A stretch of DNA of 46,405 bases, taken from the IMG/VR virus record IMGVR_UViG_2687453454_000004; one strand, 5' to 3'. Of the stretch, positions 29,688-30,931 are shown piece after piece. Positions within the stretch are counted from its first letter, which is position 1; every line of letters starts with the position of its first letter. This stretch comes from a virus. Lineage: Duplodnaviria; Heunggongvirae; Uroviricota; Caudoviricetes. The notes beneath the pieces were generated by a model. That model had not been told where the DNA came from and ran no database searches. It was given only the letters and a program-made list of their open reading frames with translations. Both the position numbers and the translations under genes were made by a program.

Positions 29688-30155
29688 TCATCGAAGGCAT
29701 TGCGTCCTGATGTATTCCTGAAGCGTTCTCAGTGCTGTTTGGTCGCGGATTATTCCGTCCCGGATACCGAGAACGTTTCGTCCAGCAACTGGAGAGAGTT
29801 CGACGGTGGCATCATTGCCCATGCCGGAGGCGCTGGAGGTTTCGGCTGAGGATGGCACAGGGCATTTTCCTTTGACGAACACCCGACCACCATTATCAAG
29901 CTTGCGCCGAAGAGCATCATTTTCAGCTTTCGCATCAGCTAACTCCTTCGTGTATTTAGCATCGAGTGCATCAGCAGAACGCTGGCGCTGCTGCATGTCA
30001 GTAATGGTGGCGGTCGCCTGCTTCAGCTCACTGACTTTTTTATCTCGCTGTTCTTTGTAGGCGATGGCGTTATCACGGTAATGATTGACCGCCCACGACA
30101 GGCAGACGATGATGCAGATAACCAGAGCGGAGATAATCGCGGTTACTCTGCTCAT
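29688..30155 (-). CDS. Rz: Spanin, inner-membrane subunit Rz
   Basis: N-terminal TM then coiled coil; likely start MSRVTAI at 30155. Confidence 0.85.
29750..29935 (-). CDS. Rz1: Spanin, outer-membrane lipoprotein Rz1 (embedded in Rz)
   Basis: 61 aa in +1 frame inside Rz; [21 protein letters not shown] lipobox and Pro-rich region. Confidence 0.8.
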
Positions 30156-30649
30156 TGTTGCCCCCACAAACAGACTTCACGCTCAATCTCACGACGAGTC
30201 ATCAGGCCTTTCCATTGCTTACCGCCAGCGTATATCCAGCGACGTAGCTGGTCACATGCGCCTTTGATATCGCCCTGGTTTATTTTGCGAAGAAGCGTCG
30301 ATGTTCTGAAATTGCCAGCACCCACGTTGTAGACGAACGAGTAAAGAGCGCCGCGCGTTGTTTCCGGTATATCGACTTTGATGTACGGGTTAATTTGTCT
30401 GGCAACCGTGGCAAGGTCTTTATTCAGGAGGGCTTTGCATTCTGCTTCGGTATACGTTTTACCGAGCATGATGTCTTTTCCGGTGTGTCCGTGACATACA
30501 GTCCATACGCCAACGATATCTTTGTATGGTATGTAGCTGACACCTTCCAGGCCATCGTCACCACTTGGGCCAGTGATTAACACTGATGCTATAGCAATTG
30601 CTCCGCCACCAATAGCAGCAGCAACTGCTTTTCGTAATGATGGAGGCAT
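30152..30649 (-). CDS. R: SAR endolysin (T4-lysozyme-like)
   Basis: 165 aa; N-terminal Gly/Ala-rich weakly hydrophobic SAR segment; lysozyme-like core. Confidence 0.85.
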
Positions 30650-30864
30650 TATTCACCTCTCGCAGCCTTGCGCTTATCTTCTTTAATCTTGAAATAAAGG
30701 TTTGTCAGGTACGTCAGCAGGCCAAATACCAGACTACCCAGCACACCTATTGCCGCCCACTGTGAGGGCGTGACTTTATCGAGCAACTGTAAAAACCAGT
30801 ACCCGGCACTACCTGCTGAGGTGCCATAGGCGACACCCGTTGTTAACTTATCCATGGATTTCAT
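30649..30864 (-). CDS. S: Holin (S21-type pinholin)
   Basis: 71 aa from MKSMDK dual-start motif; two TM segments; matches phage 21 pinholin from memory; track start 30927. Confidence 0.85.
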
Positions 30865-30931
30865 AACCCCACCTCGCAGATGCGGGTGCTGTGTAATGGA
30901 AATAAAAAGGCCACCTGACGTGGCCACCAGA

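Follow-up and report, generated by a model that had tools for sequence, protein, structure and literature searches.

The closest described counterparts of the lysis cassette reported here belong to phages 21 (OL657228) and 434 (OL657227), whose curated records annotate antiholin S71, class II holin S68, a SAR endolysin, an i-spanin and an o-spanin. The mechanism of the pinholin/SAR-endolysin family has been described (PMC9636201, PMC6116005, PMC13056207). The channels that the holin of phage 21 (S21) makes are small (~2 nm) and depolarise the membrane, and folded endolysin does not pass through them (PMC9636201, PMC6116005). For S21 68, a further report describes a glycine zipper in TMD2 (PMC9025707). 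The other prototype SAR endolysin, Lyz of phage P1, also has an N-terminal SAR domain, is exported in a Sec-dependent manner and is released on depolarisation. Its activation is attributed to disulfide isomerisation involving a SAR-domain cysteine (PMC9239132, PMC6116005).

We analyzed a 46,405-nucleotide stretch of viral DNA (IMG/VR record IMGVR_UViG_2687453454_000004, Caudoviricetes), referred to here as the window, which derives from an Escherichia coli prophage integrated in dusA. Its lysis cassette, S-R-Rz/Rz1, occupies positions 29688-30864 on the minus strand and comprises four tightly coupled genes. The gene structure, overlaps, reading frames, family assignments, near-identities, motifs and genomic context were observed directly. 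All four proteins matched Pfam families, with E-values of 2e-35 (S), 1.8e-45 (R), 8e-29 (Rz) and 2.8e-21 (Rz1), and they also matched PHROG lysis families; none of the five proteins of the locus attained the cutoff of any NCBIfam model. On the Pfam E-values and the 99.9% DNA identity to Escherichia phage Ayreon, the match is far beyond chance. The initial annotation had proposed a pinholin/SAR-endolysin cassette with an embedded Rz1, and every element that it named is present among the ORFs, Pfam matches and frames. Its reading of a cassette like that of phage 21, with Rz1 inside Rz, is supported on each testable point at the level of sequence. We estimate a probability of roughly 0.93 that a lambdoid dusA prophage has its late-gene lysis cassette here, one of the phage 21/434/DLP12 kind that operates through the pinholin/SAR-endolysin/two-component-spanin pathway.

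The limits first given to the locus (29688-30927) do enclose the cassette genes, but positions 30865-30927 are non-coding and hold a terminator hairpin and a ribosome-binding site. Position 30927 is merely the GTG of a mechanically called ORF, and the lower limit of 29688 cuts into a fifth ORF (29548-29700). The initial annotation had also missed the minus-strand orientation, the departure of the Rz C-terminus and Rz1 from the phage 21 allele, and this fifth ORF, which we refer to as orf50. The strand, the 63 non-coding nt on the 5' side, the Rz/Rz1 allele and orf50 leave the original interpretation unchanged.

The surroundings of the cassette are those of a late operon. The gene for the Q antitermination protein (33268-34020, minus; PF03589, E 3.3e-53) lies 2.4 kb upstream, followed by a terminator hairpin (~33160-33133, minus) and by a promoter-like TTGCAT-17 nt-TAAGAT, and three terminator-like hairpins are found between Q and S. 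A terminator-like hairpin formed by GGCCACGTCAGGTGGCC and then TTTTTATTT (30909-30925, minus) carries a terminator annotation in phage Ayreon; since it stands between a DNA methylase gene and S, late transcripts must read through it. On the other side, the terminator-like hairpin AGCCTCGCATTCGCGGGGCT then TTTTTATT (29495-29514, minus) closes the lysis block 3' of orf50. It is also found behind orf50 in phages epsilon34 and Kapi1, and the epsilon34 annotation gives it as a rho-independent terminator. The terminase genes follow the cassette on the same strand. Thus, the cassette does serve as the consistency check for the late-operon annotation that had been proposed, with Q upstream, the terminase genes downstream and all on one strand. 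Rfam returned no RNA family and a tRNA scan no tRNA gene in or beside the cassette.

Under the best surviving alternative, the prophage would be defective and the cassette a relic comparable to essD-rrrD-rzpD of DLP12, intact in sequence but no longer serving phage release, and either silent or put to use by the host. The names essD and rrrD that PGAP assigns to the cassette genes are taken from the copies in DLP12, itself a cryptic remnant. Related cassettes occur in 5154 of 5426 complete E. coli genomes at a median of 2 copies, many of them in cryptic prophages. PGAP also flags two tail-fibre genes of the present prophage as incomplete (5309-5443 and 8276-9253), given which it might yield no infectious particles even with working lysis genes. 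Against a relic stand the ORFs, overlaps and ribosome-binding sites, which are all intact, and the integrase, Q, terminase, portal, capsid and tail genes, all of which are present in the prophage. Moreover, only one base in 1401 nt (29600-31000) differs from viable phage Ayreon (MF807953), whose host on record is E. coli K12, and on this 99.9% identity the cassette is likely to be functional. Its molecular mechanism would be unchanged even in a defective prophage. We consider it unlikely that the cassette is such a relic, and favor its reading as the lysis cassette of the prophage itself.

The first gene of the cassette, S (30649-30864, minus), encodes the holin and scores 121 bits against PF04971 ('P21 holin S'), for which the cutoff is 26. 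The MKSM dual-start motif claimed for it was borne out, as ATG AAA TCC ATG at 30864-30853 reads M-K-S-M. M1, K2, S3 and M4 do not vary between it and phages 21 and 434, whose records list the two products as S71 and S68. Translation from Met1 (30864) would yield a 71-aa protein corresponding to antiholin S71, and translation from Met4 (30855) a 68-aa protein corresponding to class II pinholin S68. The protein is 100% identical to S of phage 434 and 86% identical to S of phage 21, with differences at 10 of the 71 positions; W27L and Q30K, where TMD1 ends, are among them. Residues G40, S44 and G48 of TMD2, which we take to be the glycine-zipper positions, are invariant in the alignment.

The initial annotation also gave the holin two TM segments, and two uncharged stretches are indeed found, at residues 7-28 (22 residues) and 31-58 (28 residues). 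The first of these, TMD1, has a mean Kyte-Doolittle value of 0.70 and consists of 55% G/A/S/T. A plain Kyte-Doolittle scan missed it, finding in it no 15-residue window with a mean of at least 1.0. Since TMD1 lies below the hydropathy threshold, the assignment of two TM segments is founded on homology and not on prediction. Such a miss is expected as a known property of SAR-like segments, and is not counter-evidence to two TMDs. Together with the short N-terminus and basic C-terminus of S, the two segments are as predicted for a family member with both termini in the cytoplasm (N-in, C-in).

A Shine-Dalgarno-like element, GAGGTGGGG (30867-30875, minus), is located 2-10 nt 5' of the first S ATG. 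It is identical in phage 434, and its GAGG is conserved in phage 21. We also folded the minus strand of 30835-30945 in search of an sdi-like RNA element at the dual start. Hairpins were predicted over the Shine-Dalgarno element and with the first AUG in the loop, both without statistical support, the hairpin energy being close to that of shuffled sequences (z = -1.32), and this candidate was rejected.

The SAR endolysin gene R (30152-30649, minus) follows directly, its ATG overlapping the S stop codon TAA by one base (TAATG), and encodes a GH24 lysozyme of 165 aa (PF00959). An N-terminal SAR or TM segment, the absence of which had been named as grounds for rejecting the pinholin/SAR-endolysin reading, is present: R6 and K7 precede an uncharged stretch, A8-G27, in which 13 of the 20 residues (65%) are G/A/S/T, in agreement with the Gly/Ala-rich anchor originally described. 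Residues 1-30 are identical to those of phage 21 R (R21), and overall identity is 97% to R21 and 98% to phage 434 R. The catalytic motif E35-X8-D44-X5-T50 is intact, in the form E-X8-D-X5-T that has been published along with SAR-domain criteria (PMC9239132). Comparison with experimentally determined structures showed R to be near-identical to crystallised R21 (3HDE, 4e-109; 3HDF, 7e-93) and RrrD (4ZPU, 6e-110). Cysteines are found solely at positions 52, 71, 132 and 160. As residues 1-51 contain none, R is of the R21 type and not of the P1 Lyz type. R21 is reportedly activated by refolding, a finding ascribed to Sun and colleagues in 2009.

A further alternative would have S open large holes as a canonical holin and would make R an ordinary endolysin, either soluble or with a signal peptide, with no pinholin/SAR logic in the cassette. 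SAR endolysins can also be paired with canonical holins, P1 being one example and the complementation of an endolysin-less lambda lysogen by R21 another (PMC6116005, PMC9025707), and the pairing of S with R alone is therefore no proof of small holes. However, S belongs to PF04971, its 86% identity is to the prototype pinholin and it has two hydrophobic segments rather than three, while R is identical at its N-terminus to the SAR domain that experiments have defined in R21. We regard a large-hole system as very improbable and retain the pinholin/SAR-endolysin assignment.

The i-spanin gene Rz (29688-30155, minus; 155 aa) has an ATG that overlaps the R stop codon TGA (ATGA), and it matches PF03245 as well as phrog_13 over its full length (5e-75). 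Its TMD spans residues 4-26, with a mean Kyte-Doolittle value of 2.0. The o-spanin gene Rz1 (29750-29935, minus; 61 aa) lies wholly inside Rz in the +1 frame, as the initial annotation had it, with its ATG 220 nt after that of Rz (220 mod 3 = 1) and its end 62 nt before the end of Rz. It spans 0.47 to 0.87 of the Rz length. About 70% of embedded spanins are reported to start at 0.4-0.5, and the reported end range is 0.9-1 (PMC6139136); the Rz1 start fits the former, and its end falls just short of the latter. The lipobox VVGC, with Cys19 and Ser as the +2 residue, fits the consensus [LVI][ASTVI][GAS]C (PMC6139136), and the mature part of 43 aa contains 8 Pro and a further cysteine, C27. Intermolecular disulfides in spanins need periplasmic cysteines, which in lambda are C99 and C152 of Rz and C29 of Rz1 (PMC6139136). 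The periplasmic C98 and C153 of the cassette Rz align with cysteines of phage 21 Rz, and both Rz and Rz1 carry candidate disulfide cysteines. That the Rz1 frame should be open by chance and not be a gene is scarcely credible, since its lack of annotation in phage Ayreon and E. coli YJ3 and 5CRE51 is a recognised gap for o-spanins (PMC6139136), whereas the frame matches PF06085 (E 2.8e-21) and phrog_3198 (1e-24), has AAGGAG 7 nt 5' of its ATG, the lipobox cysteine and a proline-rich mature part, and agrees in position and frame with the curated phage 21/434 records. The examined public annotations of this allele thus share an annotation gap in omitting the embedded o-spanin gene.

Rz is a mosaic, with residues 1-83 resembling phage 21 and a C-terminal half that represents another allele. 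Overall, Rz is 61% identical to its counterpart in phage 21, 62% to that in phage 434 and 97% to that in phage Kapi1, and Rz1 is 47% identical to Rz1 of phages 21/434. DNA alignment placed the breakpoint just after the Rz1 start. S and R of the 21/434 type are therefore joined here to a different allele of the Rz C-terminus and Rz1. The single base that distinguishes the window from phage Ayreon falls in this region, at 29751, where the window has TAA (the Rz1 stop, giving 61 aa) and Ayreon TTA (giving 68 aa, like Kapi1); the change is silent in Rz.

Behind Rz, orf50 (29548-29700, minus) is a membrane-protein ORF of 50 codons that belongs to the Sf6 gene 65 family (phrog_11822, 9e-38), with an N-terminal hydrophobic segment. 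It overlaps the final 13 nt of Rz, including the stop codon, and is the last ORF ahead of the terminator. Orf50 always comes last in the cassette, after three types of spanin and in both canonical-holin and pinholin systems. Its diverged homologs are ~45 aa long and 46-61% identical, and keep the motif IWLCR...W...ARSKGLR. Synonymous codon changes are found at their conserved residues, which suggests constraint on the orf50 protein. Among the close relatives (5 sequences, at least 90% identity), we counted ~8 nonsynonymous and ~4 synonymous changes, numbers that are uninformative on selection. It is possible, if doubtful, that orf50 is a genuine fifth lysis gene, encoding a small membrane protein that is translationally coupled to the spanins and tunes lysis; it may, for example, act when lysis occurs, with the membrane or the spanin complex as its target. 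An unrelated small moron gene would be an equally good reading, as would a conserved recombination/terminator region that is fortuitously open. A literature search on orf50 (WP_001139675, ECs0822, 'gene 65 protein') found nothing relevant.

Because of the near-identity with the phage 21 proteins, we infer a mechanism for the cassette that extends to expression, topology, timing and activity. Q-modified RNA polymerase would pass the terminators between Q and S, and S-R-Rz/Rz1, with orf50, would be transcribed as one message, in which TAATG, ATGA and the 13-nt overlap may couple translation of successive genes. S would be made from its two starts as a 68-aa pinholin and a 71-aa antiholin, in the latter of which the extra N-terminal Lys would hold TMD1 in the membrane. 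R would be exported by Sec and remain inactive, with the N-terminal SAR domain, which is weakly hydrophobic, tethering it to the inner membrane. The pinholin would, at a set time, form many small channels (~2 nm, heptameric) and the proton-motive force would collapse, whereupon the SAR domain of R would exit the bilayer and R would refold to its active form and degrade the murein. Finally, a complex of Rz in the inner membrane and Rz1, an outer-membrane lipoprotein, would disrupt the outer membrane. TMD1 reportedly exits the bilayer on the periplasmic side, as ascribed to Park and colleagues in 2006. The wording in PMC13056207 is 'cytoplasmic TMD1', and our account says solely that TMD1 leaves the membrane, with the side left unstated. 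No sequence feature contradicts this explanation. For the C-terminal half of Rz and for Rz1, identity to the tested lambda/21 proteins is just 47-61%.

The cassette is already known in kind, being an ordinary and intact phage 21-type set for a textbook pathway, with S and R 86-100% identical to described proteins, and for specialists it holds nothing new on lysis. Its main value is as an annotation check, as it confirms which way the late operon of this dusA prophage runs and where it lies, through the series of Q, terminators, S-R-Rz/Rz1 and terminase. Of minor interest are its clear mosaic structure and the recurrence of a small ORF, orf50, at the ends of lysis cassettes.

Comparison with known systems places the cassette next to that of phage 21. 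In both, the genes stand in the same order with TAATG and ATGA as overlaps, S has the MKSM dual start (71/68 aa), R is a 165-aa SAR endolysin with an identical SAR segment, and Rz1 starts 220 nt into Rz, wholly inside it and in the +1 frame. Over residues 1-83, Rz is nearly identical in the two, whereas the C-terminal half has diverged. The flanks also differ: in phage 21, S is directly preceded by tRNA genes and pR', and bor lies downstream, whereas our cassette is preceded by the DNA methylase gene and a terminator and followed by orf50. The upstream tRNA genes, tRNA-Asn and tRNA-Thr, are common to phage 21 and Sf6, and the window contains no tRNA genes. In phage 434, the identity of S extends to the ribosome-binding region and R is 98% identical, but Rz/Rz1 are of the lambda/21 type (62%/47% identity), and a bor/iss-like gene on the other strand takes the downstream place of orf50. 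Over 29688-30927, identity reaches 100% in prophages of several E. coli genomes, among them the dusA prophages of strains YJ3 and 5CRE51, which share with phage Ayreon and the window the same flanking methylase gene and orf50. Relative to essD-rrrD-rzpD/rzoD of DLP12 in E. coli K-12, R is identical at 162 of 165 residues to the 4ZPU chain, 'Lysozyme RrrD'; unlike DLP12, the present prophage carries a full set of structural genes. Sf6, epsilon34 and mEp043 (Sf6 genes 60-65) share with our cassette the last 11 residues of Rz and gene 65 (orf50), at 90-98% protein identity, as well as the terminator behind gene 65. They differ in that their holin belongs to class I, of the lambda type, and their endolysin is soluble and resembles lambda R, and the middle part of their Rz, together with Rz1, represents a third allele (Rz1 33-35% identical).

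The genes of the lysis cassette at 29688-30927 all lie on the minus strand. The pinholin/antiholin gene S (30864-30649) opens with ATG AAA TCC ATG, the MKSM dual start recognized in the initial annotation. Its stop codon TAA shares one base (TAATG) with the ATG of the SAR endolysin gene R (30649-30152), and the R stop codon TGA is in turn overlapped (ATGA) by the ATG of the i-spanin gene Rz (30155-29688). The o-spanin gene Rz1 (29935-29750), with AAGGAG 7 nt ahead of its ATG, starts 220 nt downstream of the Rz start, which places it in the +1 frame, and stops 62 nt short of the Rz stop; thus it is fully embedded in Rz, as had been proposed. 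A further 50-codon ORF of the Sf6 gene 65 family, orf50 (29700-29548, minus strand), begins with an ATG 13 nt inside the Rz 3' end, and beyond it lies a second hairpin with a T-run (29514-29495, minus strand). Directly upstream of the holin, the late operon carries an N6/N4 DNA methyltransferase gene (30932-31984, minus strand; PF01555, E 2e-42). The end of this gene is followed by the hairpin GGCCACGTCAGGTGGCC with a T-run (30925-30909, minus strand), and the Shine-Dalgarno-like GAGGTGGGG is situated between this hairpin and S on the same strand. While the lysis genes are located in the span first assigned to them, its upper limit of 30927 is merely the GTG opening a mechanical ORF, and the 63 nt from 30865 to 30927 are non-coding, consisting of the terminator and ribosome-binding region.

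In Pfam, S matches PF04971 ('Bacteriophage P21 holin S', E 2e-35), R matches PF00959 (phage lysozyme, E 1.8e-45), Rz matches PF03245 (E 8e-29) and Rz1 matches PF06085 (E 2.8e-21), with scores far over the family cutoffs. All four proteins were assigned to lysis families in PHROGs. Judged by sequence, the cassette matches exceed chance. The curated records of phage 21 (OL657228) and 434 (OL657227) annotate antiholin S71, class II holin S68, SAR endolysin, i-spanin and o-spanin. S is identical to phage 21 S (S21) at 61 of 71 residues and to 434 S at 71 of 71, and the alignment of the three reveals M1, K2, S3 and M4, together with G40, S44 and G48 of TMD2, to be invariant. Two uncharged stretches in S (residues 7-28 and 31-58) agree with the two TM segments previously described. 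With a mean Kyte-Doolittle value of 0.70 and 55% G/A/S/T, the first stretch has low hydrophobicity and stays below a simple hydropathy threshold, a property that fits the SAR-like TMD1 of S21.

R shares 97% of its residues with the phage 21 endolysin (R21), including every one of residues 1-30, and 98% with 434 R. R6 and K7 precede an uncharged 20-residue segment in which 13 of 20 residues are Gly/Ala/Ser/Thr, bearing out the Gly/Ala-rich SAR anchor of the initial annotation, and the catalytic triad E35-X8-D44-X5-T50 is present. A basic start, an uncharged G/A/S/T-rich segment and the triad are used to define SAR endolysins (PMC9239132). R has no cysteine ahead of residue 52. Since its SAR segment lacks a cysteine, R differs from P1 Lyz and is grouped with R21. 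Among solved structures, R also hits 4ZPU (RrrD) and 3HDE/3HDF, the latter two deposited as 'Lysozyme', at E values from 6e-110 to 7e-93. The residues that distinguish R21 are also present in the 3HDE chain, and 3HDE/3HDF are assigned to R21.

The spanins are more distant from phage 21, with 61% identity for Rz and 47% for Rz1. DNA alignment to phage 21 revealed near-identity from R through the Rz transmembrane segment, moderate divergence over Rz codons ~35-60, a return of identity at the Rz1 ribosome-binding site and start, and strong divergence from just past the Rz1 start to the end. Phages 21 and 434 both have nearly the same sequence as the window in the Rz TMD and around the Rz1 start. 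Where it overlaps mature Rz1, the window's Rz is a different allele from theirs; it shares 97% identity with its counterpart in the P22-like phage Kapi1. Sf6, epsilon34 and mEp043 carry a third Rz allele, and the last 11 Rz codons plus orf50 are common to the window, Sf6 and epsilon34. Taken together, the divergence pattern and the allele comparison indicate that Rz1 and the part of Rz that it overlaps form one exchangeable module, with S and R being of the 21/434 type. In the Sf6 record, a 'boundary sequence' is annotated within Rz. Despite the divergence, the predicted functional marks of the spanins are kept. In Rz, the periplasmic C98 and C153 align with cysteines of its phage 21 counterpart. 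The Rz1 lipobox is VVGC, containing Cys19 and followed by Ser at +2, and the 43-residue mature part of Rz1 includes 8 Pro as well as a second cysteine, C27; the lipobox consensus and the role of disulfides in spanins have been described (PMC6139136). The single difference from Escherichia phage Ayreon (MF807953) within 29600-31000 is base 29751, in the Rz1 stop codon (29750-29752, minus strand). The window has TAA and an Rz1 of 61 aa, whereas Ayreon and Kapi1 have TTA and an Rz1 of 68 aa, ending ...LSATKQH; in the overlapping Rz frame (GGA ATA/ATT ATC), the encoded residue stays the same. Rz1 is unannotated in the records of the same allele from Ayreon and from E. coli YJ3 and 5CRE51 (RefSeq, PGAP); the curated entries for phages 21 and 434 include it.

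The orf50 product has a hydrophobic N-terminus, belongs to phrog_11822, a family of unknown function, and is 'hypothetical' in the PGAP (WP_001139675.1) and Ayreon annotations. By tblastn, 44 phage records contain it at an identity of at least 90%, and among the matches listed it overlaps or adjoins the Rz end in every record annotated there. The position is the same in lambda-type cassettes (Sf6 gene 65, epsilon34, HK620, mEp043) and in the 21-type cassette of the window. In the records with that position annotated, orf50 is the last ORF of the lysis cassette across phages with differing holin, endolysin and spanin types. Among 1.84 billion representative proteins searched exhaustively with HMMER, only 18 matched. 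These include diverged homologs (44-61 aa, 46-61% identity) that keep the motif IWLCR...W...ARSKGLR, and three contigs bearing two of these homologs were placed in context. One metagenome contig has the order methylase, P21-type holin, lysozyme with a hydrophobic N-terminus, i-spanin-like gene with an embedded lipoprotein ORF, 60-aa gene and orf50 homolog, a distant cassette with the same methylase-holin adjacency as the window. In the two other contigs, the homolog comes after the end of a lipoprotein-like gene and ahead of terminase genes. Between the diverged copies, 7-10 of ~22 conserved residues use differing codons, and nucleotide changes are rarest at the second codon position and commonest at the third, a mild coding signature. 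The 25 nt past the orf50 stop codon are likewise conserved in one diverged copy, and hence a recombination boundary or terminator region may account for part of the conservation. In our view, orf50 is probably a genuine gene that encodes a small membrane protein and is tied by position to lysis cassette ends; a role in lysis itself is doubtful.

The window is a lambdoid prophage inserted in dusA. Its left end bears intact dusA and an adjoining tyrosine integrase gene (542-1579 and 1668-2765), its right end a short dusA fragment (45231-45335). Its length equals that of E. coli YJ3 chromosome 4463483-4509887 base for base, and the regions compared, both ends and the cassette, are 99.9-100% identical. 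The late genes all run on the minus strand. The Q antiterminator gene (33268-34020; PF03589, E 3.3e-53) is followed by a putative promoter-like element, TTGCAT-17-TAAGAT by our reading, the terminator hairpin AACCCGCCACTGAGCGGGTT with a T-run just past it (~33133-33160, minus strand), two small ORFs, a second copy of AACCCGCCACTGAGCGGGTT with a T-run (32484-32465, minus strand), the methylase gene with its terminator, and the lysis cassette. With the one at 30909-30925 included, Q and S are separated by at least three terminator-like hairpins, which gives the region the look of a Q-dependent late operon. The annotated terminase genes run from 28862 downwards, and this order of Q, hairpins, cassette and terminase supports the earlier use of the cassette as a consistency check on the late operon. 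No gene is annotated in the ~670 nt that separate the lysis block from the small terminase gene (28875-29547), and the cos site presumably lies there. Homology to Ayreon ends at ~29056, within an Ayreon ORF, termed 'putative late gene regulator', of which the window has no intact version.

Other genes were noticed in the prophage. In the early region, Rfam places a C4 antisense RNA (38395-38482, minus strand, 82.8 bits) beside an isrK Hfq-binding RNA (38507-38583, minus strand, 59 bits), both under a PGAP 'ash family protein' CDS (38107-38685). In the integrase/tail-fibre interval, a SLATT-domain gene followed by a reverse-transcriptase-domain gene (3297-5196, plus strand; PGAP, YJ3 region) looks like a prophage-borne defence module. 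Near the right end, PGAP annotates a Panacea-domain protein gene (44405-44977, minus strand). Panacea domains occur in antitoxins.

Given the near-identity to phage 21 proteins, we take the cassette to follow the phage 21-type pinholin/SAR-endolysin/spanin pathway (PMC9636201, PMC6116005, PMC13056207), with a probability of about 0.93. Expression, topology, timing and activity would then be as predicted from the observed gene structure, motifs, homology and context. The pinholin S68 would build up in the inner membrane, with triggering delayed by S71 and its extra N-terminal lysine, whilst R would be exported by Sec and kept inactive by its SAR anchor. Upon triggering, ~10^3 heptameric channels of ~2 nm each would collapse the proton-motive force, allowing R to exit the membrane, refold and then degrade murein, and the Rz-Rz1 complex would remove the outer membrane. 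The sole rival with some weight is that the cassette no longer serves phage release, as PGAP marks two tail-fibre-related genes of the YJ3 region incomplete (5309-5443 and 8276-9253, minus strand) and the prophage, while keeping intact lysis genes, may thus be infection-defective. We consider this rival improbable, and a defective prophage would leave the gene products encoded by the cassette unchanged.

The phage 21-type cassette is widespread. Over 29600-31000, the window is 99.9% identical in DNA to Ayreon, a phage listed with E. coli K12 as host, and 29688-30927 is 100% identical to prophages of E. coli 5CRE51, YJ3 and further strains. A copy covering at least 80% of 29688-30927 is present in 1384 of 5426 complete E. 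coli genomes, and a related cassette in 5154. The finding is thus correct and ordinary: a known architecture and a near-copy of its prototype, present in thousands of sequenced genomes.
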